This document shows, piece by piece, positions 21,972-40,001 of a DNA stretch of 64,000 bases. The notes beneath the pieces were generated by a model, which had not been told where the DNA came from, made no database searches, and worked only from the letters and a program-made list of their open reading frames with translations. Every line of letters begins with the position of its first letter. Position 1 is the stretch's first letter. Position numbers and translations under genes: made by a program. Source of the DNA: a bacterium (GTDB taxonomy: Bacteria > Verrucomicrobiota > Verrucomicrobiia > Chthoniobacterales > UBA6821); assembly GCA_037130175.1 (NCBI GenBank), contig JBAXTN010000009.1, forward strand, positions 1,247-65,246. The letters are read 5' to 3'.

Positions 21972-23834
21972 ATGAATAAAGCCCCCACCCGATTCTTGAT
22001 CCTTCCGCTTGCGTTGGGACTCCTTAGCCACTCCCTCTTTGCACAGGTTATTCCGGGTTCAGTTGGTCTAGTTTCTCCCTTTTCTCCCGGTGGCTTCAAC
22101 ACGATTGGCAATGCCTCGGTGACGGGATACGGCTCACTTTTTTCCGCCAATGGAAATCCGATCACTTTTGAGGTTGATGCCGGGGCTGCTGGTCAAAAAA
22201 TGGATGTCTTTTCGATTGTCTATCCAGCAGCCCAATCGTCTCAATTCAGCGTGGTTTTCAGCTTTATCAACACCAGCCAAGGGATTCCGACATCATTTTT
22301 CGGTGTTCAGAACAATTTCTTAAATGGCAATCCCACTGCCCAGTTTCAAAGCGGACGCCAAGAGCCGACGAGCTACACGGTGACCGGCGCACCAAATATT
22401 ACCTATACCCTTGGGATTGGAACGGATGTTTACAGTCTTTCTGTCCGCTTCTGGTTGAATACTCAGACCAATATTACTGGTGGAAACTATTATCCAAACG
22501 GACTTCCAATCACCACAAATGCCCCTCCTAATTCCGTGGCATCCGGCACTCCGGGGTCAACGAATCCTCCGACCACTTCGGTGGTATCAGGTAGTACAGG
22601 TGGTGGCACCAATACGGTCGCTAGTACGCCCCAGGCTTCTTCAGTGCCGATCAACCCCGCCACAGGGCAGGTCTATGCATCCAATATCAATCCCTCAAAG
22701 CCTCTCAATATTAATGCCTACAACGCTTCGGGGCTGATCGACCATGTGGCCAACAACCAACTCACGAGCAATACCGACTTCAATAATGTCATCACGGTTC
22801 TTGCCTTCTTGCCAACCGCTGCGCAGACCGAGCAGGCACTCGACCAGATCCTTGCCGAGCCATATGCCTCAATTATCAGCGTCACAATGGAATCGATCAA
22901 CAGCTTCCGTCAGGCTTGCATGAGGGCCGCCTGGAGTGGCAAAAAGATCAAGCTTCCGGAGGACGAGCGCTGGAGTGTCTTCACCGATGTCGGTAATAAT
23001 CAGGCTAATATGACCGGAGCCAGAGACGGTCTAGCAAATTTCAACTACAATATCTTTCAGTCGATCCTCGGAGTAGAGTATGCCGTGACCAAGGATTTCA
23101 CGACGGGCGTGGTAATGGGGTACGGATATGATCATGCGGGAGGCTTCGAGTACACGAGCGCCAACCTTTACGCAAATAGCGTCAACATGGCCCTCCTCCA
23201 AAAATACAATCCCGGCAACTTCCGTTTTGTAGGATTGATGGGCTACAGCGACTTCCAGTACAGCTCGACACGTCAGATCAACTTTGGTTCACCCGCCGCT
23301 GGGTTTATCAACCGTCAGGCCAGTGGGCGGTGGCAATCGGATGGCTTGGTCGCCGCTCTCAACGCTGGCTATGAGCAGAAGTTGGGGCCACTTGTCTTTA
23401 CGCCAAGTCTTCTTTTCTCCTATGTCTACCAACTCCAACAGGGATTCACGGAGACGGGAGCCAACTCTCTGAATCTGCAGGTCAATGCCGCCCAGTCCAG
23501 CTCCATGATTCTTGCTCCCGGCTTTCAGATCGAGGCTCCCATCAGGCTCTCGAAGACTCTCATTCTCACCCCCAAGGCTTTTGCCTCGTGGGAGCATGAC
23601 TTCCTTGCCAATCAGGCGCAGAACCGTCAGGTCAATGCTTCCTTCGCGGCTGTTCCGGAACCGGGATCGCTCACGGTTTTCGGGGTCAACCGGGGTGCGG
23701 ATGCAGTCAATGTGGAGGCCGGATTGGAACTCACGGTGAATGAAAAATGGGCCGTCTACGCCGGGGCCCAATACCAGTATTGGGGGACTGATCAGGAACT
23801 CGGCTATAACGGTGGACTTCGTTACAGCTGGTAG
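21972..23834 (+). CDS. autotransporter-like outer-membrane protein
   Basis: Signal peptide, a Ser/Thr/Pro/Gly-rich passenger, and a C-terminal ~280-aa region of alternating beta-strand pattern ending in GGLRYSW (aromatic terminus). Confidence 0.75.
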   Translation: MNKAPTRFLILPLALGLLSHSLFAQVIPGSVGLVSPFSPGGFNTIGNASVTGYGSLFSANGNPITFEVDAGAAGQKMDVFSIVYPAAQSSQFSVVFSFINTSQGIPTSFFGVQNNFLNGNPTAQFQSGRQEPTSYTVTGAPNITYTLGIGTDVYSLSVRFWLNTQTNITGGNYYPNGLPITTNAPPNSVASGTPGSTNPPTTSVVSGSTGGGTNTVASTPQASSVPINPATGQVYASNINPSKPLNINAYNASGLIDHVANNQLTSNTDFNNVITVLAFLPTAAQTEQALDQILAEPYASIISVTMESINSFRQACMRAAWSGKKIKLPEDERWSVFTDVGNNQANMTGARDGLANFNYNIFQSILGVEYAVTKDFTTGVVMGYGYDHAGGFEYTSANLYANSVNMALLQKYNPGNFRFVGLMGYSDFQYSSTRQINFGSPAAGFINRQASGRWQSDGLVAALNAGYEQKLGPLVFTPSLLFSYVYQLQQGFTETGANSLNLQVNAAQSSSMILAPGFQIEAPIRLSKTLILTPKAFASWEHDFLANQAQNRQVNASFAAVPEPGSLTVFGVNRGADAVNVEAGLELTVNEKWAVYAGAQYQYWGTDQELGYNGGLRYSW

Positions 23835-23852: not shown

Positions 23853-24914
23853 CTATTTTAGTTCCGGCGGGAGAGGTAAATTCTTGATCTGCTGTACGGC
23901 GTCGCGGTGACAGACAAGGATCGCATCTTCGGTCTCCACCACGACGAGATCACTGACGCCGCAGAGAGCCACGGTTCGTTTCCCTGCCACAACAATGTTC
24001 CGTGACGAATCAAGCGAGATTACCGAGCCTTTCAGGGTATTCTCGTTGGCATCCTTGCCGAGATGAGCGGGAAGCGCCGCCCAGGAACCGACATCGTCCC
24101 AGTCGTATTCTGCAATGGCCGCGGCAACGCTGGAGGCATGTTCCATGATCGCGTAGTCAACGGAGATTTTGGGAAGATTGGGAAATGTTTCTTTCAGAAA
24201 GGAACCGACATCCGGGGTATTCCCGAGGGCCTCAATAAAATGAGCCAACTCGGGTTGCTGCCTTACACATTCTTCCAGAAAAAGTGATCCCTGCCAGAGA
24301 AACATGCCTGCATTCCAGCCATGCTGTTTTCCTTTCAGAAATTCCTGAGCACGGGCCACATCGGGTTTTTCGACAAAGCGTTGCACGGTCACAAATCTTG
24401 TGGTGCCTTGGGAAGGCAGCGGTGATCCGAGTTGGAGATAACCAAAGCCTGTGGAGGCGTAGGAGGGAGTGATTGAGAAAGTAAGGATCGTCGGGTGTTC
24501 GGCTGCAAAATCTGCCGACTCAGCAAGCTGCCGTCGAAAGGTTTCCGTGTCATGGATCATCGCATCGGCGGGGAAGAGAGCAACAATGGCATCCTTGCGT
24601 TGACGCAGGGCGAGGCCTGTTGCAAGAGCTGCGGCGGGTGCCGTATCGCGCTTGGCAGGTTCGGCGATTATGTTCTGCCTGGGCAGGAAGGGAATCGCAG
24701 CGATCGTAGAGTCGATCTGAACTGTGTTGGTCAGAATAAAGATCTGCTCCAACGGGACGATCCCCTCGAATCGGCGGACAGTCTGCTCGAGGAGAGTCTC
24801 TTCTCCCAGAAGTCTGAGGAGGTGTTTAGGTGTAACGGAACGACTTGCCGGCCAGAAACGCTCACCACTCCCACCTGCCATGATGAAGACGAAGAGGCGG
24901 TCGAGTGAGGACAT
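23853..24914 (-). CDS. mannose-1-phosphate guanylyltransferase
   Basis: N-terminal nucleotidyltransferase loop FIMAGGSGERFWPASR...PKHLL. At 353 aa it has no PMI domain. Confidence 0.85.
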   Translation of the reverse strand: MSSLDRLFVFIMAGGSGERFWPASRSVTPKHLLRLLGEETLLEQTVRRFEGIVPLEQIFILTNTVQIDSTIAAIPFLPRQNIIAEPAKRDTAPAAALATGLALRQRKDAIVALFPADAMIHDTETFRRQLAESADFAAEHPTILTFSITPSYASTGFGYLQLGSPLPSQGTTRFVTVQRFVEKPDVARAQEFLKGKQHGWNAGMFLWQGSLFLEECVRQQPELAHFIEALGNTPDVGSFLKETFPNLPKISVDYAIMEHASSVAAAIAEYDWDDVGSWAALPAHLGKDANENTLKGSVISLDSSRNIVVAGKRTVALCGVSDLVVVETEDAILVCHRDAVQQIKNLPLPPELK

Positions 24915-24955: not shown

Positions 24956-27652
<2,697 letters not shown>

Positions 27653-27790
27653 GGGCAGCTGGAAAGCAAACACATGGACGGTGAGAAAAACAAGTTCTCT
27701 ATCCCTTCGGGCATTTCCCAATATGACAGAAAGTGACAGAAAACGGTTTCCAACCCTTAAGGCTCACATCATTCTTGTCTCACTCTACCG

Positions 27791-28348
27791 ATGGACAATG
27801 ACTGGTTTCAACTCGTGGTCGATGAATACTACGGCGATCTCTATCGTTTTGGATTAAAGCTTTCTCACAAGCCGGAGGATGCCTCCGATCTGGTGCAGCA
27901 AGCATTTGCAATCTTTGCTGCAAAAGGGGATCAGATTCGAGAGTCGGAAAAGGCCAGGCAGTGGCTCTTCACAACCCTCTACCGGGAATACGTGGCGAAG
28001 TATCATAAGAATAAGCCGTTGCTCTCACTCGATGATGAGGAACTGGATCTTCCTGAACCTACCGTGGAGAGTTCCGTGCATCGCGATGCAGAACGGAACG
28101 AATTGCTTGGTGCCCTTGATGATCTTGAAGCTCACTACCGGGTCATCCTCACGCTTTTTTATCTGAATCAGCACAGCTACAAGGAGATCGCCGCGATTCT
28201 GGATGTCCCCATAGGAACAGTCATGTCACGGCTTTCCCGAGCGAAAGATCTTCTCCGTCAAAGAGTGGAGGAAATATCACGACTCCATGGAATAAATGTC
28301 CTTCCGTTCCCCTCTAATGAACAGGAGAAGCTGTCCAAAAACCGCTGA
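27791..28348 (+). CDS. ECF-type RNA polymerase sigma factor
   Basis: Region 2 ([10 protein letters not shown]...[10 protein letters not shown]) and region 4 HTH ([27 protein letters not shown]). Confidence 0.9.
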
Positions 28349-29137: not shown

Positions 29138-29893
29138 TCACAGTTTAGAATTTTCCAGCAAAGCAGCTACCTGCGCGTGGAGTTGAAGCGCCGCCTCCTT
29201 TCGCCCGCGATCGGGCATAGACGGCGTCCCAAAATTCAGAAGAGCGACAAACGGCTTTCCTGAAAGAAGACTCAGAAGATGAGGAAGGAAGGTCATCTCC
29301 CCCCAGTAGGCGATCCCGGTGGCAATGGCTCCTCCTTCCTTCAACCGATAAGTAACGGATGCGGGCGTGATGGAACTGCCTGTGGACAGGGCGGCCTGAA
29401 GCAGTGAACTGCGAAACGGAAGCACACCCGTCCCGTCGGAGCTGGTTCCTTCCGGGAAGAGAACAAGAGGATACCCCTCTGCTAGAAGCGAGGAAATCCC
29501 CTTGATCTGGTGCGCCGCCTTGAGTCGTGAATCTCGCTGCACAAAATGAGTGCCAGCGAGTGAGGTGAGCCAGCCAAAGAGAGGCCAGCCCTTCACATCG
29601 TTCTTAGCAACAAATATTGCCGGACACACCGAGCCGATGACCAGAATATCGACATAGCCGAGATGATTGCAGACCACGAGGCCGCGCTCGGGAGGATTAC
29701 CCTGGACGGAGACGCGACCTCCAAGCAGTCGGAGAAAACGGCGGCTCATCCATTGCATCCAGGCAATTTTTCCACTGAGAGTAGTTTGGGTGAAGCGGAT
29801 TAAAAATGCCGGGTACGCAAGAAACCCCGTCACAATGATTCCCAGAAGGGAAAATATACGAGCGGAACCACGCAGAAATCCGGGGAAACTCAT
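29138..29893 (-). CDS. lysophospholipid acyltransferase (PlsC/OlsA-like)
   Basis: HX4D motif (CNHLGYVDI) and FPEGTSSDG motif. Overlaps the upstream GNAT gene by 4 nt. Confidence 0.75.
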   Translation of the reverse strand: MSFPGFLRGSARIFSLLGIIVTGFLAYPAFLIRFTQTTLSGKIAWMQWMSRRFLRLLGGRVSVQGNPPERGLVVCNHLGYVDILVIGSVCPAIFVAKNDVKGWPLFGWLTSLAGTHFVQRDSRLKAAHQIKGISSLLAEGYPLVLFPEGTSSDGTGVLPFRSSLLQAALSTGSSITPASVTYRLKEGGAIATGIAYWGEMTFLPHLLSLLSGKPFVALLNFGTPSMPDRGRKEAALQLHAQVAALLENSKL

Positions 29894-30654
29894 GGACTGC
29901 TAATCCCTTCTTTCTTAGGCCTCTCCACGAAGCGCTCCGTGGCGATCGGCGAACTGTTTCTAGAATCGATCATGGTTAGGAAATCAATGGTTTTGAATTC
30001 CCGATCTATTGCCGGAGGAGCGCAGATTTTTGCCCCGACCCCGAGATAGGCGCGGAGGAGTTTTGGCGGAGGAGGCGACTCGGCGAGAGGTTCGACATCA
30101 GGCAAGGCAAAGTCGGGCATAGGAAGAGTGCGAAGGGCTTCCTCCACGAGATATTTTTCCCTCTCGAAGCGAAGATACATCGCCTTCCCAAGTGCCGGAT
30201 CCTGGGAGGTGAGGGAACTGCAACCGATCATATAGCGTCCCTGATGAGACATGACATAGCGGACGAGTTCCTTCCAGAGCAGGCTGATGACGACGATGCT
30301 GCGATGATCCTTGTGAACACAGGCGCGGCCTAGTTCCACAATCTCCCCTCTCAGCGGTTCAAAAATTGACATATCAAACTCCCTCGCGCTGTAAAACCCC
30401 AGATTGCGTTCAGCCATGGCACCGGTTTGCATCCTGTAAGTTCCCACGACAGCCCCCGAGGATGATTCCTGAATGATGAGATGATCACAAACCGCATCAA
30501 ACTCATCCTCGTCCAATCCCTCGGCATGTGAGGTGGCAAGCCCCTCGTTCAGTTCGAGATTAAACACTTCATAGCGCAGACGGAGCGCCGCCCTTACCTC
30601 TTCGCGAGAGCCGGCAAAACGAACGATGTAGCCGGTTTTAAAAAATCCAGACAT
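29890..30654 (-). CDS. GNAT-family N-acyltransferase (OlsB/hemolysin-like)
   Basis: The pattern FAGSREEVRAALRLRYEVFNLELNEG...DEFD..CDHLII...VVGTYR is typical of ornithine/amino-acid N-acyltransferases. Confidence 0.7.
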   Translation of the reverse strand: MSGFFKTGYIVRFAGSREEVRAALRLRYEVFNLELNEGLATSHAEGLDEDEFDAVCDHLIIQESSSGAVVGTYRMQTGAMAERNLGFYSAREFDMSIFEPLRGEIVELGRACVHKDHRSIVVISLLWKELVRYVMSHQGRYMIGCSSLTSQDPALGKAMYLRFEREKYLVEEALRTLPMPDFALPDVEPLAESPPPPKLLRAYLGVGAKICAPPAIDREFKTIDFLTMIDSRNSSPIATERFVERPKKEGISSP

Positions 30655-30791: not shown

Positions 30792-30875
30792 ATAAAATCC
30801 ATGGGAAGTTGCTCAATCAGAATAAGCGCCAGCTCTCATAAACAAATCACTTCAAAATGAACCCATGGATTTTAT
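30792..30875. repeat. 14-nt perfect inverted repeat (ATAAAATCCATGGG / CCCATGGATTTTAT); distal arm covers the YHS gene ATG
   Basis: Arms read directly at 30792-30805 and 30862-30875. Related copies: ATAAATCCAT at 30753-30762 and GAATCCAT at 30700-30707. Confidence 0.9.
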
Positions 30876-31359
30876 GCAAATCAAACAGACCAAGCAAGCC
30901 CCCCACAGTTTTCGACTACATGTATTTTTGGCAATGGCTTTTATCCTCTCTGCACAATTTGGATTTTCAAAGTCTCTGGAGAATGTCGATCGGACCGGTC
31001 TGGGGATCAAAGGTTACGATCCCGTCGCCTATTTCACGGACAACGCTCCAATTCTTGGGTCATCCCAGTTCCAGACCACCTTTGACGGGGTGATCTACCA
31101 TTTCAATAGTGCCGCGCACAAGGAGGCCTTCGATGCCAACCCTGAAAAGTACGCTCCGCAATTCGGAGGCTTTTGTGCTTATGGCGTCTCCAAAGGGAGC
31201 ACGGTGAGCATTGACCCTGCCGCCTTTCAGATCGTGGATGGCAGATTGCTACTGCAATACAGCAGAGGCATCAGGGAGACCTTCAACAAGGATTCGGTAG
31301 GAAACTTAAAGAAGGCAGACGCCAACTGGATTCTCCTCCTGGATAAAAAGGGGAAATGA
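30865..31359 (+). CDS. YHS-domain protein, secreted
   Basis: GYDPVAYFTDNAPILGSSQFQTTFDGVIYHFNSAAHKEAFDANPEKYAPQFGGFCAYG matches the YHS-domain family pattern. Hydrophobic N-terminus. Confidence 0.8.
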   Translation: MDFMQIKQTKQAPHSFRLHVFLAMAFILSAQFGFSKSLENVDRTGLGIKGYDPVAYFTDNAPILGSSQFQTTFDGVIYHFNSAAHKEAFDANPEKYAPQFGGFCAYGVSKGSTVSIDPAAFQIVDGRLLLQYSRGIRETFNKDSVGNLKKADANWILLLDKKGK

Positions 31360-31463: not shown

Positions 31464-31868
31464 ATGAAACCGAATTCTCCACTCGTTACAGTGATACTCT
31501 GGATCTGCAGGATCGTTGCTGCGGCCATTTTGATTCAGACTCTGTATTTCAAATTCTCCGCCGCACCTGAATCGGTCTATATCTTCACCAAGGTAGGACT
31601 TGAGCCGTGGGGGCGTATCGGATCAGGAGTTGCCGAGCTGATAGCATCCTTTCTGATTCTGTTCCCACGCACTACCTGGATCGGTGCGATCCTTGCATTA
31701 GGAGTCATGGGTGGCGCTATCATGAGCCACCTGACGGTTCTAGGAATCGATGTGATGGGAGACCATGGGCTGCTCTTCTGTCTCGCGCTAACCGTGGCAT
31801 TTTGCTCCGCAGTTCTCCTCTTCCTTTCCAGAAAATCCATCCCCGTCATTGGAAAGATTCTACCGTGA
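31464..31868 (+). CDS. DoxX-family membrane protein
   Basis: 134 aa with four hydrophobic segments and a DoxX_2-like pattern (RIVAAAILIQTLYFKF...GVAELIASFLILFP). Confidence 0.7.
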   Translation: MKPNSPLVTVILWICRIVAAAILIQTLYFKFSAAPESVYIFTKVGLEPWGRIGSGVAELIASFLILFPRTTWIGAILALGVMGGAIMSHLTVLGIDVMGDHGLLFCLALTVAFCSAVLLFLSRKSIPVIGKILP

Positions 31869-31869
31869 T

Positions 31870-32397
31870 ATGAGACCACTGATGCTCCACGCTCTTGAAC
31901 AGGTTCTCGATCAAGGCGAAGGTCTTCTCCGTATTCTTAATGACGAGTCATTCAAGACTCCCTTGAGCTCTGCCAGGGGTGCCACCATTGGGGGGCATTA
32001 CCGGCATTGCTTGGATCACTTTGAAAAATTATTCACCGGAATTGACCATTTCCTCATCGATTACGATGCACGCGGCCGCGACCAGCGACTTGAAACTGAT
32101 CGAGAGTTTGCTCTGGGACGAACAGTGGAACTCCGATTATTCACGCGCACCATGGATGCTCGGCTGCTTAAACACTCCATCCAAATCCGCTGTGCTGTAT
32201 CCGGGGATGAGGGTGAATCGCCTTTTGTTACCTCCACGATTGAAAGGGAAATCATGTTCTGCATCTCCCACGCCATCCATCATTATGCCCTCATCGGAAT
32301 GATGTGCATGGAGATGGATGTGCGACTTCCAGTGGAATTCGGCGTGGCTCCCTCAACCTTGCATTACCGCTCGGTTTCCGCACTGCAAACTGCTTGA
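31870..32397 (+). CDS. DinB-superfamily-like protein
   Basis: Helical protein with His-rich putative metal ligands (GGHYRHCLDHF ... ISHAIHHYALIG). The ATG is 1 nt after the DoxX stop; an alternative start at 31849 would overlap DoxX. Confidence 0.55.
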   Translation: MRPLMLHALEQVLDQGEGLLRILNDESFKTPLSSARGATIGGHYRHCLDHFEKLFTGIDHFLIDYDARGRDQRLETDREFALGRTVELRLFTRTMDARLLKHSIQIRCAVSGDEGESPFVTSTIEREIMFCISHAIHHYALIGMMCMEMDVRLPVEFGVAPSTLHYRSVSALQTA

Positions 32398-32421: not shown

Positions 32422-34026
32422 ATGAGCCACGATTTCTGGACTTTTACCGGTCTGTTTCTGCTCACTTTTATTTCCGAGGATACGGCCACGCTTGGTGGCG
32501 CCTATCTTGCCTTGGCGGACGCCAAGGTATTGGAACGGGTCTTTCTGGCCTGTTTTTTAGGCATCTGGGCGGGTGATCTGGGGCTCTATTTTCTGGGGCG
32601 ATATTGTGGTCGTCCTTTGGCCAACCGAATTTTGGGAAACAAGAAACTTGCCGGGCAAAAAATCAATCAGAGCGAACTCTGGTTCCAACGCTATGGAATG
32701 CTCTCCTTGGTCATCTCTAGATTCGTTCCTGGGATGAGATTGCCGACATATCTTTCCGCTGGTTTTTTAAAAATGCCAGCCCTGCCTTTCATCTGCGCCA
32801 CCGGAGTACTTGCCGCACTGTGGGTGACGCTCCTCTTTTGGTTGGTTCACAGACTTGGCGCGACGGCGCCGGGAGTTTTTCATCAACTTCGACAGAATCA
32901 GGTCTTGGCTGTTTGTGCCCTGTTGGCCTTTGTGATTCTCCTCCATTTTCTCATGAGAGGCGCGAGCTCGATGCGCTGCCGGCAGTTCTTCCGAAAGCTT
33001 TGGCAGTGGGAATTCTGGCCTGCATGGTTTTTCTATCTGCCCGTTGTCGCAAACTTTCTCCGTCTCTCCATCCGATATGGCAGCATCTCCCTGCCTACCT
33101 CTGCCAATCCGGGAATGTTGACCGGGGGGATTATCGGCGAGTCCAAGTTCGAGACCCTTGATGAACTCCAGACAAGCAGCCCGGAATTCGTTGCTGCAAG
33201 TTATCTTCTTACGGAGGAAGGAGACCGCATGGGCAAGTTGCAGAGTCTGCTTATCGGGGGGGAACTGGAATATCCGTTTATTCTCAAACCGGATGTCGGG
33301 CAACGCGGAAGCGGCTTCAAAGTGATCCATCGTGAGGATCAGGCGCGTGCCTACCTGTCGCAAGTCGATGTGCCAATCGTTGCTCAGCAATATATTGCGG
33401 GGCCTTATGAAGCAGGTGTCTTCTACTATCGTTTTCCCAACGAAAATAAGGGGCGTATACTTGCCATGACGGAGAAGATCTTTCCCGTCATTGAGGGTGA
33501 TGGCAGCCACACGATCGCTGAACTGATTCGAGCGGACAAAAGGGCATCCCTTCTTGCGGAGACCTATCTCACTCGCTTCCAAGATTCGCTCGGAGAGATT
33601 CCTCCATCGGGGCAGAGCGTGCGTCTGGTCGAGGCGGGCAATCATGCTCAGGGCTGCATTTTTCGAGATGGGATGTATCTCTGGAGCAGTGAGTTAGAGA
33701 GCCGGATCGATGAGATTTCTCAAAAAATCAATGGTTTTTTTGTCGGCCGGTATGATCTCCGGTTTTCATCCGCTGAGGAGCTTACAAAGGGGAATGCGTT
33801 CTGGATTCTGGAACTCAACGGCGCCTCATCGGAACCAACAAGCGCCTATGATGCCTCCAAATCCCTTGCGGATGCCTACGGTCTGCTCTTCAAGCAATGG
33901 AATATTGTGTTTGCTATTGCCGCCCAGAACAGGGCGCTGGGTCATCAGTCGGATGCCATCATGAGTGTTCTTAGCGAATGGAGAAAATACCGACTCCGAA
34001 GCATCTGTCATCCTGCTGCTGACTAA
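32422..34026 (+). CDS. fusion protein: DedA/VTT membrane domain + extra TM segments + ATP-grasp ligase domain
   Basis: The N-terminus is DedA-like (ISRFVPGMRLPTYLSAGFLKM). The C-terminus has ATP-grasp motifs (FILKPDVGQRGSGFKVI, VAQQYIAGPYEAGVFYY, WILELNGASSEPT). Confidence 0.75.
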   Translation: MSHDFWTFTGLFLLTFISEDTATLGGAYLALADAKVLERVFLACFLGIWAGDLGLYFLGRYCGRPLANRILGNKKLAGQKINQSELWFQRYGMLSLVISRFVPGMRLPTYLSAGFLKMPALPFICATGVLAALWVTLLFWLVHRLGATAPGVFHQLRQNQVLAVCALLAFVILLHFLMRGASSMRCRQFFRKLWQWEFWPAWFFYLPVVANFLRLSIRYGSISLPTSANPGMLTGGIIGESKFETLDELQTSSPEFVAASYLLTEEGDRMGKLQSLLIGGELEYPFILKPDVGQRGSGFKVIHREDQARAYLSQVDVPIVAQQYIAGPYEAGVFYYRFPNENKGRILAMTEKIFPVIEGDGSHTIAELIRADKRASLLAETYLTRFQDSLGEIPPSGQSVRLVEAGNHAQGCIFRDGMYLWSSELESRIDEISQKINGFFVGRYDLRFSSAEELTKGNAFWILELNGASSEPTSAYDASKSLADAYGLLFKQWNIVFAIAAQNRALGHQSDAIMSVLSEWRKYRLRSICHPAAD

Positions 34027-34040
34027 TACGTATTCGCGAC

Positions 34041-34772
34041 ATGTGCACACTCTCCTTCCTTCCGGCAGACAAGGGCTTTCATCTTCTCATGAATCGTGAC
34101 GAGCAACGCAGCCGTCCAGCAGGCATCCCTCCCACGATTCATCAGTGCAATTCCAGAACAGCTATCTTTCCGAGCGAGCCTACGGGGGGCACATGGATCG
34201 GATCAAATGACCTCGGACTGACCTTTGCCCTGATCAATTGGTATTCAAAACCTCAGTTAATGACTCCGCTGGCTTTCAGTCGGGGGCAAATTATTCCGCA
34301 ACTACTCTGCCAACACACGATTGACGCTGCGGGGGAGATTTTCTCCACATTTCCTCATTCCTGTCTGAATCCCTTCCGATTGATCGGGATCTCACCTGTA
34401 GAACAACGACTTCAAGAGTGGCGCTCCTGCGTGACCGATACGGAGTTTCTCGCCTTAGACTGGAAAAAAAGACATTGGTTTTCATCCGGCTTTGAGGAAG
34501 CCGAAGCCTCGAAAGTCAGGGCCAATACATGTCAGGCTGAAACGGTTGATCATGGTCAGTCTTCCCTCGATTCACTGAGACGACTGCATTCCTCACATCT
34601 TCCCGCAAAAGGTCCCTACTCGATCTGCATGCACCGACCCGATGCCTGCACGGTCAGCTTTACGGAACTTTCCCTGACTCACGGAACGGTAACCATGCGG
34701 TACCACTCCGGTGCACCGTGTGAAGCTCTGGATCTTCCATGCTCTGAACTGAGCCTTTCCATATACCCATGA
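34041..34772 (+). CDS. NRDE/TANGO2-family protein (Ntn-hydrolase-like, Cys2)
   Basis: Starts MCTLSF...LLMNRDEQRSRP, the signature NRDE motif with an N-terminal Cys after Met. Confidence 0.8.
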   Translation: MCTLSFLPADKGFHLLMNRDEQRSRPAGIPPTIHQCNSRTAIFPSEPTGGTWIGSNDLGLTFALINWYSKPQLMTPLAFSRGQIIPQLLCQHTIDAAGEIFSTFPHSCLNPFRLIGISPVEQRLQEWRSCVTDTEFLALDWKKRHWFSSGFEEAEASKVRANTCQAETVDHGQSSLDSLRRLHSSHLPAKGPYSICMHRPDACTVSFTELSLTHGTVTMRYHSGAPCEALDLPCSELSLSIYP

Positions 34773-35362
34773 CCATGAAACCCAACAGATTGGAAGCCTT
34801 CAGCGACGGTGTCATTGCCATCATCATCACCATCATGGTGCTCGACCTGAAAGCGCCCCATGAACCGAATCTCGATTCCGTACTTAAGGTAGTCCCCACC
34901 CTGCTGACCTATGTGCTGAGCTTCATCATCGTAGCGATCTATTGGGTCAACCATCATCACCTTCTTCACCTTGTCACCAAGGTCGATGCGGGCATCCTTT
35001 GGGCCAATATCAACCTTCTCTTTTGGATGTCCCTCTTCCCATGGGTGACATCTTACCTGGGAGAGAATCACGCAGCACCCCTAGCCGTTTCCGCCTACGC
35101 CGTTGTGGCATTTGCAAGCGGGACTTCCTTCAACATCCTGAGAAGGATCATCGCCCGTCATCAAGAGCAGAGTGAAGCGCAGCACTCCCTGCATGCACGG
35201 AGAAACATTCTGAGTCTTGTCGCTCTTATTTGCTATTTCTCCGCGATCTTCACGGCCTGGCTTTATGTCCCTCTCGCTCTGGTTTCGATTGCGGCTCCGA
35301 TGATGATCTATTTTTTCCCGGATCTGATATTCCCGGATCACAAAGCTATGAAAAATGATTAA
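34769..35362 (+). CDS. TMEM175/DUF1211-family K+ channel homologue
   Basis: TM1 signature RLEAFSDGVIAIIITIMVL (RxxxFSD) and six hydrophobic segments. ATGA overlap with the NRDE gene. Confidence 0.8.
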   Translation: MTMKPNRLEAFSDGVIAIIITIMVLDLKAPHEPNLDSVLKVVPTLLTYVLSFIIVAIYWVNHHHLLHLVTKVDAGILWANINLLFWMSLFPWVTSYLGENHAAPLAVSAYAVVAFASGTSFNILRRIIARHQEQSEAQHSLHARRNILSLVALICYFSAIFTAWLYVPLALVSIAAPMMIYFFPDLIFPDHKAMKND

Positions 35363-36125
35363 TTTTAGTCATGCTCGCATCCGTCTCAGCTGCCTCCTTT
35401 TCCTGACTCTAACAGCTCTTCACAGGGCCGAAGGGTTCACCCCTTTGGCGCTACATAGCGAAGAGGCAAAAATCCAGCTAATCGAACTCTACACTTCCGA
35501 GGGATGCAGTAGTTGCCCCCCGGCAGAGAGTTGGTTCAGCAGTCTCAAACAGAATCCCGCGCTTTGGAAAAGATTCGTCCCTGTGGCCTTTCATGTGGAT
35601 TACTGGAATTACCTTGGGTGGACGGATCCCTATGCTTCGGCAGATTACAGTGTCAGACAACGCTCTTATGCGAATGCTTTGCACACAGGCAGCATTTACA
35701 CACCCGAGTTTTTTCTCAACGGGAAGGAATGGAAACCGGACATATTCGAGATCCCAACTTCCGTGCAAACTACCGGATCACTCAATGCCACACTCTCTGA
35801 TAGCGGAAAAGTAGAGCTTCTTTTTAAGCCTTTGAATCGACACATCACTTCGTATGTGATCGAGGTGGCGCTTCTTGAGTGCGACCTCAGCAATTCCGTG
35901 ACTCGCGGTGAAAATGCAGGGCGGATTCTGCATCATGATTTTGTGGCATATGCCCTCCTGAAGTCTAAATTAACCCCGGATGGAGAAAGAGGCTACAAGG
36001 CCGCGATCACTCTACCCTCACACCATTCAATGCCATCCACAGCCATCGCCATCTGGGTTCGAGAGGAGCAGAGTTTGATCCCGATTCAGGCGCTCGGGGG
36101 GATGGTTGAAATAAAACGCCTGTGA
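35355..36125 (+). CDS. DUF1223 protein (thioredoxin-like, CxxC), secreted
   Basis: Signal peptide, then IELYTSEGCSSCPPAE and FHVDYWNYLGWTDPYAS, typical DUF1223 motifs. 8-nt overlap with the TMEM175 gene. Confidence 0.8.
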   Translation: MINFSHARIRLSCLLFLTLTALHRAEGFTPLALHSEEAKIQLIELYTSEGCSSCPPAESWFSSLKQNPALWKRFVPVAFHVDYWNYLGWTDPYASADYSVRQRSYANALHTGSIYTPEFFLNGKEWKPDIFEIPTSVQTTGSLNATLSDSGKVELLFKPLNRHITSYVIEVALLECDLSNSVTRGENAGRILHHDFVAYALLKSKLTPDGERGYKAAITLPSHHSMPSTAIAIWVREEQSLIPIQALGGMVEIKRL

Positions 36126-36191: not shown

Positions 36192-37274
36192 ATGAAACAA
36201 CTTCTTTGGAATCAAGTTTACCCACTTCTCATCATACTCCTTCTTGCCGGATGCGAGCAGGGCAAAGCTGGCCAATCCACACCAAATACCTCCACAAACA
36301 CTATGATCCCTAGCAACCAGTTCCTACCCATCCCACACGAGGATCGTAAACAGAAGCTTACTCCCATGCAGTATGAGGTGACACAGCATGCGGCCACAGA
36401 GCCGGCTTTCCATAATGAGTTCTGGGACAATCATCAACCTGGAATCTATGTTGATGTCGTCTCAGGAAAGCCTCTCTTCAGTTCGCTCGATAAGTTTGAT
36501 TCCGGCTGCGGTTGGCCCAGCTTTAGTAAGCCTGTGGACCCCAAAGTCGTTGTGGAGAAGACTGATAAAACCTTCGGGATGGAACGCACCGAGGTTCGCT
36601 CCGAGGGGGCTGATTCACATCTCGGCCATGTCTTTGACGATGGTCCCGGCCCCACCCACCTGCGCTATTGCATTAACTCAGCTTCGCTCCGATTCATACC
36701 CGTTGATCAGATGGAGAAGGCCGGCTACGGATCGCTCGTGGCTCCTTTTATCAAGGCGGGGTTGTTCAAGTCTCCCGCGGGAAAACCAACACAGGAAACG
36801 GCTGTTGTGGCCGGAGGATGCTTCTGGGGAATGCAGGAGATCATCCGCAAGATTCCCGGCGTGATCAGTTCGACGGTTGGCTACACTGGAGGAACGATCC
36901 CAAATCCAACCTACGAGATGGTGTGTTCCCACAACACCGGGCATGCTGAAGCAGTAAAAGTTACCTTCGATCCCAGCGTCCTGAGTTACGATGAGTTTCT
37001 ACACTTCTTTTTCAGGATGCATGATCCCACCACCCTGAACCGCCAGGAAAACGATATCGGCGACCAATACCGTTCGGCCATCTTCTACACGAGTGAGGAG
37101 CAGAAACAAACCGCCCTCAAAGTGAAGGGGGAAGTCGATAAATCAGGAAAGTGGAAGAAGCCCGTAGTTACTGAGATAACCAAGGCGACGACTTTCTATC
37201 CAGCCGAGGAGCATCATCAGGATTACTTACAAAAGAACCCCGGCGGCTACATGTGCCACTTTCTGCGCAACTAA
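36192..37274 (+). CDS. msrAB: lipoprotein-anchored bifunctional methionine sulfoxide reductase MsrB-MsrA
   Basis: Lipobox LLLAGC. The MsrB part has GCGWPSF and RYCINSASL. The MsrA part has GGCFWGM and [12 protein letters not shown]. Confidence 0.9.
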
Positions 37275-37349: not shown

Positions 37350-37610
37350 ATGACGACAACAGAAACAGCAGAAATTGCAGCACTCCGGCTGCATGATAAC
37401 GATACCGGCAGTGCCGATGTGCAGGTGGCCAATCTCACACAGAGAATCACGGTGCTGACAGAGCACCTTAAAGGCAACGCCAAGGATCACTCCTCCCGTC
37501 GTGGCCTTCTTAAAATGGTGGCCACACGCCGCCGTCTCCTTGATTACCTAAAAAATACCGCTTCAGAGCGTTATCAGGCAGTCATTGAGAAGCTCAATCT
37601 GCGCAAGTAG
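37350..37610 (+). CDS. rpsO: 30S ribosomal protein S15
   Basis: 86 aa; [40 protein letters not shown] is canonical S15. Confidence 0.95.
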
Positions 37611-37862
37611 CTATTTTCGGGGGCCCGGCTTTTCTCTGCGGGTCTGAAAAGACCTGTGTGAGGAGATCGGGAATCCGGCACACTTGCCTCCCTACCCTAC
37701 CTTTTATCACCTCTTGGTTAAGAGGGATTCTCCTGATTGGAGAGAAAGGCAAATAAACCCATTACCCAATATCGGCACCCGTTCAGGGGGCCATCCGCAT
37801 CCAAGGGCAATCAATATTTTCGCCCGTGTCGGATCCTTATTCCAACCCAAGAAACAAACACC

Positions 37863-40001
37863 ATGTCACACACCACTATTACGGCCAATGTCGGCCAGAA
37901 CCCTATCTCCTTTGAAACCGGCAAGATTGCCAAACTCGCCGATGGCGCGGTGATGGTTCGCTCCGGCGAGACCATCGTCCTCGTCAGCGCCGTTTCTGCC
38001 ACCAGCATCAAGGATGGGCAGGATTTCTTCCCTCTCACCGTAGATTACAAGGAAAAGGCTGCCGCCGTGGGCAAATTCCCAGGCGGTTATTTCAAGCGTG
38101 AAGGCCGTCCCAGTGAAAAAGAAATCCTCACTGCCCGTATGACAGACCGTCCGCTGCGTCCCCTTTTCCCGAAGGGATACTTCTACGATACCCAGATCAT
38201 CAGCATCCTGCTCTCTGCTGATGGCGAGATCGATCCTGATATCCTCTCAATCAATGGAGCTTCTGCCGCACTTTGTGTGTCAGACATTCCCTTTGAGAAG
38301 CCCATTGCAGCTGTTCGTGTGGGCCGCATCGGTGGTCAGTTCGTGGTCAATCCCACGCACACTCAGCGTGAAGAAAGCGATCTCGATCTTGTCTATGTCG
38401 GCGATGGCGAGAAGGTCATCATGATCGAGGGTGCGGCCAATGAATTGCCTGAAGAGGAGTTCAAGAAGGCCCTCGATTTTGCCCTCGTTGAGTCCAAGCC
38501 CCTCATCGCTGCCCAACGCGAGTTGATCGCTGCCGCTGGCAAGCCCAAGCGCGAATACAGCGTCCTTGCCGTGGATCAGGGAATGCTCGAAATCGCTTAT
38601 GCCGTCGCCGGTGATCGTATCGAGGCCGCTCTCTATACTCCTAGCAAGGTTGCCCGTGGCAAGGCTGTCGGCGCGCTTCGTGAGGAAGTGAAGGCCAAGA
38701 TCCTTGAGAGTTTCCCCACGGCAACGGGATTTGAAATTTCCCAAGCATTTGATTATCTCCAGAAAAAGGCATTCCGCGTCAGCATTCTCGACAAGCAGAA
38801 GCGTTGTGACGGACGCGGACTCTTTGAGTTGCGCCAGCTTACGAGCGAGACATCCATCCTGCCCCGTGCACACGGATCCGCCCTCTTCGCCCGTGGTGAG
38901 ACCCAGGCGATGGCCCTTGCAACGCTTGCAACCACCGATGAAGCCCAGATGATTGATGGATACGGTGGCGGTGAAACGACCAAGCGATTCCTGCTCCATT
39001 ACAACTTCCCTCCTTTCAGTGTGGGCGAGACTGGCCGCTTCGGTGGTCAGAATCGCCGCGAGATCGGTCATGGTGCCCTTGCCGAGCGCTCCGTCTTCCC
39101 AGTGATCCCCTCGCAGGAGGATTTCCCGTACGCGCTTAGGGTGACCAGCGAGGTCATGGAGTCAAACGGCTCCACCTCGATGGCCTCAGTCTGTGCCGGA
39201 GTGCTTGCGCTTCTGGATGCCGGAGTTCCGCTCAAGCGGCCGGTTGCCGGTATCTCCGTCGGTCTTGTTTCCGAGGATGATGGCAATGGTAATCTCACCC
39301 GCCACACCCTCCTCACCGACATCATAGGCAGTGAGGATCACTTCGGTGACATGGATTTCAAACTTTGCGGAACAGAGGAGGGAGTCACCGGCTTCCAACT
39401 CGATCTCAAGCTTGCAGGTATCAGCCACGAGCTTCTGGCCTCGGCAATCGACGACGCACGCAAAAATCGCGGGCTTATCATCGATCACATGAAGCAGACG
39501 CTCGGATCACACCGCACCGAGATGAGCAAGTATGCTCCCCGTATCGAGACCGTGAAGGTTCCGCAGGACAAGATTGGCATGATCATTGGCCCTGGTGGCA
39601 AGACGATCAAGAGCATCGTTGCCGAGACTGGTGCCGAGATCAACATCGAGGATGATGGCTCCGTCCACATCTACTCCAGCAATGGTGAGAGCCTGAAGCG
39701 CGCCAAGGAGATCATCGAAGGGATGATCCGGGAAATTGTGGTGGGTGACATCTATCAAGGTACTGTTGTTTCAATCAAAGACTTCGGTGCTTTCGTCGAG
39801 GTGCTTCCCGGAAAAGATGGTCTTGTTCATATCTCCGAATTGGCCGATGCCCGCGTCAACAAAGTTGAGGATGTTGTTAAGAGTGGAGATGTCATCTGGG
39901 TCAAGTGCATCGGCGTCGATGACAAAGGGCGCGTGAAGTTGAGCCGCAAGGCTGCAATGAAAGAGCGTGATCAGGCTGCTGCGGCAGCGCCTGTTGCTTA
40001 A
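37863..40001 (+). CDS. pnp: polyribonucleotide nucleotidyltransferase (PNPase)
   Basis: Two RNase PH domains, a KH domain (IGMIIGPGGKTIK) and an S1 domain (GTVVSIKDFGAFVEVLPGKDGLVHISE). Start set at MSHTTITA (37863). Confidence 0.95.
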   Translation: MSHTTITANVGQNPISFETGKIAKLADGAVMVRSGETIVLVSAVSATSIKDGQDFFPLTVDYKEKAAAVGKFPGGYFKREGRPSEKEILTARMTDRPLRPLFPKGYFYDTQIISILLSADGEIDPDILSINGASAALCVSDIPFEKPIAAVRVGRIGGQFVVNPTHTQREESDLDLVYVGDGEKVIMIEGAANELPEEEFKKALDFALVESKPLIAAQRELIAAAGKPKREYSVLAVDQGMLEIAYAVAGDRIEAALYTPSKVARGKAVGALREEVKAKILESFPTATGFEISQAFDYLQKKAFRVSILDKQKRCDGRGLFELRQLTSETSILPRAHGSALFARGETQAMALATLATTDEAQMIDGYGGGETTKRFLLHYNFPPFSVGETGRFGGQNRREIGHGALAERSVFPVIPSQEDFPYALRVTSEVMESNGSTSMASVCAGVLALLDAGVPLKRPVAGISVGLVSEDDGNGNLTRHTLLTDIIGSEDHFGDMDFKLCGTEEGVTGFQLDLKLAGISHELLASAIDDARKNRGLIIDHMKQTLGSHRTEMSKYAPRIETVKVPQDKIGMIIGPGGKTIKSIVAETGAEINIEDDGSVHIYSSNGESLKRAKEIIEGMIREIVVGDIYQGTVVSIKDFGAFVEVLPGKDGLVHISELADARVNKVEDVVKSGDVIWVKCIGVDDKGRVKLSRKAAMKERDQAAAAAPVA

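Follow-up and report, generated by a model that had tools for sequence, protein, structure and literature searches.

The window analysed here is a 64,000-nucleotide stretch of contig JBAXTN010000009.1 from a bacterium of the order Chthoniobacterales (Verrucomicrobiota). It carries a gene for a protein in which a DedA/VTT membrane domain is fused to an ATP-grasp ligase domain, and this gene is followed by genes for an NRDE/TANGO2-family protein and a TMEM175-type K+ channel homologue. An initial examination of the DNA and its translations (hereafter, the sequence-only reading) had described these three genes as a translationally coupled trio. The open reading frames (ORFs), the 14-nt gap, the ATGA overlap, the 8-nt overlap, and the quoted peptide motifs on which this description was based were all confirmed. 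The fusion gene ends with the stop codon TAA at 34024–34026 and is separated by the 14-nt spacer from the ATG of the NRDE gene at 34041; the NRDE/TMEM175 junction is the ATGA overlap at 34769–34772, and another in-frame ATG occurs 6 nt further on; and the ATG of the DUF1223 gene at 35355 creates the 8-nt overlap into the TMEM175 stop codon TAA at 35360–35362. Upstream, the ATG of a DinB-like gene at 31870 comes 1 nt past the stop codon of a DoxX gene, and the end of the DinB-like gene lies 24 nt before the fusion gene. The longest ORF of the DinB-like gene would begin at TTG 31849, with a 20-nt overlap into DoxX; the start chosen by gene callers and seen in relatives is ATG 31870. The packing was therefore as tight as had been stated, and the same-strand run proved to be longer, extending from the YHS gene at 30865 through the DoxX, DinB-like, fusion, NRDE, TMEM175, and DUF1223 genes to the MsrB-MsrA gene, which ends at 37274. 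Tight packing of this kind is by itself ordinary for an operon. A scan of the region between 27.5 and 38 kb for promoters and terminators gave counts no higher than those in shuffled sequence and detected no intergenic terminators, and was thus uninformative on operon structure.

The conservation of this neighbourhood was evaluated in 80 loci examined from 280 GTDB species genomes encoding a relative of the fusion (genome loci) and in a second set of 80 metagenome loci, 56 of which were of the hydrolase type discussed below. Neighbours were counted from tblastn and hidden Markov model (HMM) matches; greedy ORF clustering of these GC-rich loci gave spurious antisense "families." The fusion itself had 2,961 matches at 90% clustering. 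Among the genome loci with room for the respective neighbour, the DinB-like gene directly preceded the fusion gene in the same orientation in 74 of 75, and the NRDE gene was found 3–69 nt downstream of the fusion gene in 69 of 74. The adjacency of the ligase and NRDE genes is thus beyond chance. DoxX, with 50–76% identity across loci, was present in 51 of the 80 genome loci, mostly directly upstream of DinB, and in 16 of the 80 metagenome loci, where it adjoined the fusion in 15 of the 16 cases. The other neighbours in the genome loci were YHS (37), DUF1223 (19, always upstream of the fusion), OlsB (14), an extracytoplasmic function (ECF) sigma factor (12), OlsA (9), and MsrB-MsrA (7). The conserved unit (hereafter, the module) almost certainly comprises the DinB/YfiT-like, DedA::ATP-grasp, and NRDE genes, usually accompanied by DoxX, and excludes TMEM175. 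The trio was consequently borne out in its fusion and NRDE part and lost its TMEM175 part, and the DinB, DoxX, and OlsB/OlsA partners had been missed. The functional link proposed between the ATP-grasp fusion and the NRDE protein gained support from an adjacency conserved across lineages and from natural NRDE-hydrolase-DedA-ATP-grasp fusions.

According to their labels, the loci belong to Verrucomicrobiota, Alphaproteobacteria (e.g., Rhizomicrobium), and Acidobacteriota, with single contigs from Nitrospirota, Myxococcota, and Chloroflexota. The loci from Alphaproteobacteria and Acidobacteriota were arranged differently and were much more divergent; therefore, several independent lineages are involved. 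Some labels look wrong (L068, L019, L025, L036, L062, L067, and L077, assigned to Dongiaceae, Rhizobium, Bifidobacteriaceae, and Akkermansia). When the fusion of the "Dongiaceae" locus L068 was used as a query, the 120 best relatives were 65–70% identical and of the verrucomicrobial type, and the few named ones were Verrucomicrobiota. The apparently wrong labels of these contigs suggest binning or labelling errors.

The assignments of the third and fourth genes were sound: TMEM175 scored above its Pfam threshold (PF06736, 106.5 bits vs. 25), DUF1223 was matched by Pfam with 145 bits, and the RxxxFSD motif of TMEM175 (R7-LEA-FSD) was found in the translation, in the first transmembrane helix. 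The arrangement of the window was repeated on contigs with an identical protein (20 contigs from 20 samples). In the relatives with 88% identity, TMEM175 also followed NRDE but was truncated to 163 aa, vs. 197 aa in the window, with an ISL3 transposase gene next to it; the other genes of the cluster were intact. The relative with 59% identity (L084) contained the ECF sigma factor, anti-sigma factor, DUF1223, DoxX, DinB, fusion, and TANGO2 genes without TMEM175, and tblastn, even at E ≤ 1e-3, detected TMEM175 in none of the 80 genome and none of the 80 metagenome loci. Because it is kept only in near relatives (at least 83% identity) and is absent from the 59%-identity relative and the 160 loci, TMEM175 is a lineage-specific insertion, a local passenger gene, and it was rejected as a third partner. 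The sequence-only reading had itself named absence from relatives as evidence against the trio, and for TMEM175 this is what was found, the adjacency being limited to close relatives. The ATGA overlap shows co-expression of NRDE and TMEM175 here, not a common pathway. Thus, although this overlap and the same-strand packing, seen in the window and in the identical contigs from 20 samples, would be expected if the DedA::ATP-grasp, NRDE, and TMEM175 proteins formed one pathway, the loss of TMEM175 at greater distances and its shortening beside the transposase make that explanation scarcely credible. The ISL3-family transposase gene between TMEM175 and DUF1223 occupied L081:8376–9751 and L082:7862–9643; L082 additionally carried a separate Zn-ribbon/HTH ORF.

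Table 1. Genes and protein domains of the module and its surroundings in the window.
Feature	Position (nt)	Strand	Length and profile match
OlsA-like lyso-aminolipid O-acyltransferase	29138–29893	-	Pfam Acyltransferase PF01553, 84.8 bits
OlsB-like N-acyltransferase (first aminolipid-synthesis step)	29890–30654	-	Pfam Acetyltransf_5 PF13444, 115.5 bits
YHS domain-containing (seleno)protein family member, Cys form	30865–31359	+	NCBIfam NF041384, 144.5 bits, above cut-off
DoxX-family small membrane protein	31464–31868	+	Pfam DoxX, 28.6 bits
DinB/YfiT-like putative four-helix-bundle metalloprotein	31870–32397	+	175 aa
DedA::ATP-grasp fusion gene	32422–34026	+	534 aa
DedA/VTT membrane domain, fusion residues 1–185	32422–32976	+	Pfam VTT_dom, 52.6 bits
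Aromatic helix (residues 196–219, WEFWPAWFFYLP) and ATP-grasp domain (residues ~255–534) of fusion	32977–34026	+	AlphaFold/Foldseek
NRDE/TANGO2-family Cys-Ntn-hydrolase-like protein	34041–34772	+	243 aa; Pfam TANGO2, 28.7 bits
TMEM175-type K+ channel homologue	34769–35362	+	197 aa; Pfam TMEM175, 106.5 bits
DUF1223 thioredoxin-like protein, CSSC motif	35355–36125	+	256 aa; Pfam DUF1223, 145 bits
MsrB-MsrA fusion, lipoprotein-type signal, stress-repair neighbour	36192–37274	+	Pfam SelR + PMSR

The proposed domain composition of the fusion protein was confirmed by the Pfam VTT_dom match (gathering score 33.9) in its N-terminal part and, for the ATP-grasp part, by weak NCBIfam matches, structure comparison, and invariant catalytic motifs. 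In the DedA domain, which contains hydrophobic segments at residues 39–59, 113–148, and 155–184, the residues E19 D20, G51 D52, and R100-x2-P-G-x-R106 were invariant. The motif W196-E-F-W-P200, located between DedA and the ligase at the start of an aromatic hydrophobic helix, was invariant as well. No Pfam ATP-grasp model exceeded its threshold on the C-terminal 280 residues of the window fusion, and the NCBIfam matches of this part were weak, partial, and far below cut-off (cyanophycin synthetase, E = 7e-6); its weak sequence matches in the PDB were CphA2, CphA1, and GshAB, archaeal pseudomurein ligases and Ddl were also among its matches, and one relative of the fusion passed the RimK model (24.1 bits vs. 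21). An AlphaFold model of the fusion built from 55 homologues (pLDDT 85.5, pTM 0.66) matched cyanophycin synthetase 1 (E = 4e-10), GshAB, and dozens of D-Ala-D-Ala ligases in a Foldseek search of the PDB with a probability of 1.00; 371 PDB matches were obtained at E ≤ 1e-3, with ~250–300 aligned columns for the closest. Across 55 sequences, K289, R295-G296-x-G298-F299 of the GQRGSGF loop, Q322, R443-x-D445, and E464-x-N466 were invariant, and S297 of the same loop was nearly so. The lysine (ATP binding), the flexible Gly-rich loop, and the RxD and ExN residues (Mg binding) presumably correspond to those of Ddl. Because these positions and Q322 are invariant, the ATP-grasp domain looks catalytically competent. 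The suggestion of an ATP-dependent carboxylate-amine ligation at the membrane was supported. The CphA1 G domain, the GshAB C-terminal domain, and Ddl are the closest structures (E = 4e-10 to 1e-7) and have the same pattern of catalytic residues; however, they share only 12–19% identity with the window protein and are soluble, whereas the ligases described here have a membrane helix on the N-terminal side and occur fused to DedA, hydrolase, NRDE, or DinB domains.

Like UptA, YqjA/YghB, and TMEM41B/VMP1, the DedA part has a VTT domain above threshold and the acidic and RxxPGxR motifs of the family. Its best NCBIfam match was the undecaprenyl-phosphate transporter UptA (NF052604). Together with the Ddl and archaeal pseudomurein ligase matches of the ATP-grasp part, this match could point to a polyprenyl-phosphate-linked envelope precursor, with DedA handling undecaprenyl phosphate and a Ddl-like ATP-grasp domain extending a lipid-linked peptide or glycan by an amino acid. 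However, the UptA score of 60.2 bits is far below the equivalog cut-off of 250, and OlsB and OlsA genes recur near the module whereas peptidoglycan or glycan genes do not, so that we regard a polyprenyl-linked substrate as distinctly unlikely. We know of no characterised DedA protein that is fused to an enzyme domain.

The sequence-only reading had called the DedA and ATP-grasp architecture unusual, a view that did not hold. When the helix-plus-ATP-grasp part alone was searched against 1.8 billion representative proteins, 2,785 clusters at 50% identity were found at E ≤ 1e-3, and 1,112 at E ≤ 1e-30. The best 150 matches included 83 DedA + ATP-grasp proteins, 34 alpha/beta-hydrolase + DedA + ATP-grasp proteins of ~800–1,030 aa, five hydrolase-bearing proteins of 577–847 aa with no DedA part detected, two NRDE + hydrolase + DedA + ATP-grasp proteins (P0198 and P0254), one metagenome protein of 543 aa with DinB + ATP-grasp and no DedA (P0222), and 25 ATP-grasp-only proteins. 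The last may be fragments derived from short contigs; P0130, which was checked, was encoded on a contig of 1,356 nt. The source annotations read "VTT domain-containing protein," "DedA family protein," and "alpha/beta fold hydrolase." All architectures to which Pfam was applied were confirmed, among them NRDE-hydrolase-DedA in P0198, and the architectures of P0254 and P0222 were derived from HMM matches. The true start of P0198 is MCTVT, and P0254 begins likewise; the nucleophile Cys thus stays N-terminal in the fusions. In the fused hydrolase, the domain consensus has a GxSxG nucleophile elbow, and the best profile matches were PHB depolymerase, a lipase, the monoacylglycerol lipase ABHD6, and the alpha/beta hydrolase 6i8w. 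The match to 6i8w extended over the entire length and took in the N-terminus; we take this entry to be the membrane-anchored phospholipase PlaF. The WEFWP helix was kept in every architecture, even in the absence of DedA. Taken at the level of predicted domains, the naturally occurring fusions demonstrate joint action of NRDE, DinB, DedA, and the ligase, and P0222 shows that the ligase can apparently be membrane-anchored without DedA. In P0222, the helix retained without the DedA domain reads FEFWPAWFFYFP.

The NRDE/TANGO2 assignment and the N-terminal Cys noted for the second gene were verified. The window protein exceeded the Pfam cut-off for TANGO2 (PF05742, 28.7 bits vs. 22.6), and the family profile matched human TANGO2 structures (E = 3e-8); the alignment covered the N-terminal half and ended at approximately residue 128 with the two profiles tried. 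Across 43 sequences, C2, R19 D20 E21, N66, R81, S149, R160, and H183 were invariant and N18 was nearly invariant, and all relatives, where correctly called, begin with MC(T/S). C2, R19-D20-E21, and N66 align with human TANGO2 Cys2, Arg26-Asp27-Glu28, and Asn75 (the NRDE motif being TANGO2 residues 25–28), whereas S149 and R160 are candidates only for the equivalents of the C-terminal catalytic residues Asn157 and Lys166 of TANGO2, as they lie in the region beyond ~128 that is unaligned. In a 2026 crystal-structure paper, TANGO2 was proposed to be a Cys-Ntn hydrolase that acts on fatty-acid amides, with Cys2, the NRDE motif, and Asn75 making up its active site. Human TANGO2 and HtpA are thus similar to the window protein in belonging to PF05742 and in having Cys2, the NRDE motif, and the equivalent of Asn75; they differ in that the profile match is weak and confined to the N-terminal half and in that the ligase and aminolipid operon context found here has not been described for them.

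Bacterial TANGO2 homologues, e.g., Shewanella HtpA, have been reported as heme-binding, heme-trafficking proteins (PMC10470608). A non-enzymatic role of this kind for the NRDE protein, in a cluster serving hemoprotein or cytochrome assembly, would also be in keeping with the recurrence near the module of a ferric-reductase-type heme protein with a Rieske domain. However, the putative Ntn catalytic residues are invariant, and the partners to which the NRDE protein is fused or coupled are a ligase and a hydrolase, not heme or cytochrome c maturation genes. In addition, heme binding to TANGO2 was non-specific in the 2026 crystal-structure study, and most homologues were not interchangeable in the HtpA study (PMC10470608). 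Heme trafficking is therefore very unlikely to be the function of the module. The ferric-reductase-type heme and Rieske membrane protein was located at L084:10381–12192 and L087:4253–5413 and recurred in 13 GTDB and 6 metagenome loci.

A link to lipid metabolism was provided by the OlsB/OlsA-like genes. In the window, they are divergent from the YHS-to-MsrB-MsrA run, with which they share a common intergenic region of 210 bp. The best NCBIfam matches were the L-ornithine N(alpha)-acyltransferase OlsB (133 bits vs. a cut-off of 350) and the lyso-ornithine lipid O-acyltransferase OlsA (138 bits vs. a cut-off of 300). OlsB was found near the module in 14 of the 80 genome loci and 30 of the 80 metagenome loci, and OlsA in 9 and 28, respectively. 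By chance, only 0.1–0.6 OlsB genes would be expected vs. the 14 and 30 observed, assuming 1–3 OlsB genes per 5 Mb for the 0.99 and 0.72 Mb scanned. Within the subfamily of the window, the positions of OlsB and OlsA vary and may be divergent, convergent, or co-directional, a pattern typical of a selected association. The connection was closest in other loci: L089 carries OlsB-like, OlsA-like, DinB, TANGO2, and fusion genes on one strand with overlapping junctions; L088 carries OlsB-like, OlsA-like, and fusion genes; and in L087, DinB is followed by the gene for an NRDE-hydrolase-DedA-ATP-grasp protein. In the hydrolase-type metagenome loci with room (n = 39), DinB was upstream in 27 and NRDE in 18; of the 27 such loci with at least 3.6 kb of upstream sequence, 17 had a same-strand OlsA gene upstream and 16 a same-strand OlsB gene. 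The complete order OlsB, OlsA, DinB, NRDE, fusion occurred in 10 metagenome loci, and 8 more lacked NRDE only.

On this basis, we propose a model in which the module modifies an aminolipid. The 534-aa protein would be a membrane-embedded amide ligase composed of a lipid-handling DedA/VTT domain, an aromatic interfacial helix, and an ATP-grasp domain. The product of OlsB and OlsA would be an N-acylated amino acid with its free alpha-carboxylate held at the membrane surface, and the ligase would be well placed to extend or cap this carboxylate because of its interfacial helix and lipid-handling DedA domain. ATP-grasp enzymes of the Ddl/CphA/GshAB type phosphorylate an amino-acid or peptide alpha-carboxylate and couple it to an incoming amine. 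Here, the ATP-grasp domain would phosphorylate a carboxylate, most likely the alpha-carboxylate of the N-acyl-amino-acid head group, and couple an amine to it, yielding an aminolipid with an extended or capped head group similar to the taurine-ornithine lipid cerilipin. The DedA domain may be responsible for presentation of the lipid or for its transfer across the inner membrane. For the NRDE protein, we envisage amide hydrolysis in turnover or editing, directed at the newly made bond or at the N-acyl bond of the lipid, which agrees with the recent TANGO2 proposal, and the lipase-like alpha/beta-hydrolase of the larger variants would act on an ester-linked acyl chain. Aminoacylation of the head-group amine and re-formation of the N-acyl amide from a free fatty acid are less likely chemistries. 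We infer the substrate, the bond made, the transport direction, and any part played by DinB and DoxX from context. An aminolipid is, by a narrow margin if any, the favoured substrate; that the module is accessory to OlsB/OlsA aminolipid synthesis of the ornithine-lipid type and serves lipid remodelling has about an even chance of being correct; and carboxyl amidation specifically, as the chemistry of the ligase, is proposed tentatively.

The ECF sigma factor occurred near the module in L084, L088, and 12 of the 80 genome loci, in some cases with a zf-HC2 anti-sigma partner, and MsrB-MsrA genes were found in 7 of the 80 genome loci and L084. The YHS protein of the window is a Cys form with the motif FGGFCAYG, and its DUF1223 protein carries a CSSC motif. 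In Verrucomicrobiota, the YHS, DUF1223, DoxX, and MsrB-MsrA proteins look like an envelope redox-repair set accompanying the module, and these redox genes may reflect mere co-regulation. Ornithine-lipid formation is itself a stress response (PMC12971839).

The DinB-like protein bears on another explanation. In the window, its Pfam DinB_2 score of 17.8 bits was below the gathering score of 24.8; a DinB_2 or DinB match was found at E ≤ 0.1 in 19 of 20 relatives, the best being 7e-6. A sequence-profile search of the family against the PDB gave no matches, and the fold was obtained from structure prediction and Foldseek: the AlphaFold model (pLDDT 94.4) matched YizA, BH3987 DinB, YfiT, mycothiol S-transferase, BstA, and ClbS. 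Six histidines were invariant (H43, H46, H50, H134, H137, and H138, in HYRHxLxH and HxxHHYA motifs); the conserved histidines probably form a metal site, and the choice of those that bind the metal is likewise a prediction. The matches to mycothiol and bacillithiol S-transferases, the fact that GshAB is one of the nearest structures to the ATP-grasp domain, and the redox neighbours (YHS, DoxX, DUF1223 with CSSC, MsrB-MsrA, AhpC-like, OsmC, and the ECF sigma factor with its zf-HC2 anti-sigma factor) would all suit a soluble low-molecular-weight thiol or redox conjugate that the ATP-grasp domain makes as a small amide, in the manner of glutathione or glutathionylspermidine synthetases, NRDE hydrolyses, perhaps as a redox switch, the DinB-like S-transferase uses, and DedA exports to the envelope. 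However, such a conjugate leaves the operon of OlsB, OlsA, DinB, NRDE, and fusion genes unexplained, as well as the lipase-like hydrolase fusions and the invariant membrane-interface helix, and no conserved partner gene for a cysteine or glutamate ligase was found. We therefore consider the thiol conjugate unlikely, though less so than the polyprenyl-linked precursor.

Several observations weigh against the aminolipid model. The best-known activity of DinB-fold enzymes is thiol S-transfer, which a lipid pathway leaves unexplained, and the commonest neighbours in the subfamily of the window are redox and stress genes (YHS, DoxX, DUF1223, MsrB-MsrA, and the ECF sigma factor) that fit a thiol or redox role. 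OlsB was adjacent in 14 of the 80 loci of this subfamily and thus was rarer than in the hydrolase-type loci, and the aminolipid link comes from gene neighbourhood only. By sequence, the OlsB/OlsA-like proteins of the window are aminolipid synthase homologues that score far below the equivalog cut-offs, so that the amino acid of the head group is not established, and no conserved gene for the synthesis of a special amine was found near the module in the loci examined. The inter-domain geometry of the fusion model is uncertain (pTM 0.66). Finally, some of the metagenome-assembled genomes carry unreliable taxonomic labels, and the phylum count is approximate.

The aminolipid model has a parallel in Gluconobacter cerinus. 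In the synthesis of cerilipin, the transfer of taurine to the carboxyl group of an ornithine lipid is ATP-dependent, and the gene is still unknown (PMC12971839). In this reaction, the carboxyl group of an OlsB/OlsA-type aminolipid is amidated with the use of ATP, as would be expected of an ATP-grasp enzyme encoded in OlsB/OlsA operons; the likeness is one of chemistry. The DedA-fused protein is accordingly a candidate for the orphan ATP-dependent ornithine-lipid-modifying enzyme. A broader proposal, that the NRDE/TANGO2 family consists of Cys-Ntn amidohydrolases of N-acyl-amino-acid lipids and that the DedA-fused ATP-grasp protein is the missing head-group-extending ligase of the cerilipin type, is speculative, and we hold it to be possible rather than probable.

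Two further systems have a comparable composition. MprF is an aminoacyl-phosphatidylglycerol synthase fused to a flippase, and it uses aminoacyl-tRNA; it is similar in combining a head-group-modifying synthase and a lipid-translocating domain in one membrane protein, and differs in that its synthase and flippase folds are unrelated to the ATP-grasp and DedA/VTT domains described here, without homology. In glutathionylspermidine synthetase/amidase, an ATP-grasp-type synthetase and a Cys amidase act on one bond; the enzyme is soluble and has a thiol-polyamine substrate. The pairing of a ligase with a Cys amidase is shared, whereas the amidase has a CHAP fold and not an Ntn fold. In the full-text literature, no paper was found that ties DedA, ATP-grasp, TANGO2/NRDE, DoxX, or DinB to ornithine lipids or aminolipids, an earlier computational mention being possible, and two recent aminolipid reviews list no such enzyme. 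The component families are all known, and the module suggests an undescribed lipid-modifying pathway.

In humans, deficiency of TANGO2 is a severe disease, and the function of the protein is disputed, with a heme chaperone, an acyl-CoA binder, and an Ntn hydrolase having been considered. Through bacterial operons, and also within single proteins, TANGO2 homologues are connected with an amide ligase, a lipase-like domain, and synthases of N-acyl-amino-acid lipids, which indicates a testable substrate class. If NRDE is an amidohydrolase acting with the DedA ligase, the bacterial operon would reveal the ancestral biochemistry of human TANGO2 and a new, enzyme-coupled role of DedA. The fusion also offers an example of a DedA domain with a fused catalytic partner, which is useful as DedA substrates are poorly defined, and it belongs to a widespread unannotated ATP-grasp family of more than 1,100 clusters.

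Regarding the remainder of the window, an ECF sigma factor is encoded at 27791–28348. The 249-aa protein encoded next, up to 29107, contains a single hydrophobic segment, has no Pfam match, and may be an anti-sigma factor. Farther upstream, an autotransporter beta-domain protein (21972–23834), a mannose-1-phosphate guanylyltransferase-like gene (23853–24914, minus strand), and a valyl-tRNA synthetase gene (24956–27721, minus strand) are unrelated neighbours. The rpsO and pnp genes follow MsrB-MsrA at 37350–40001.

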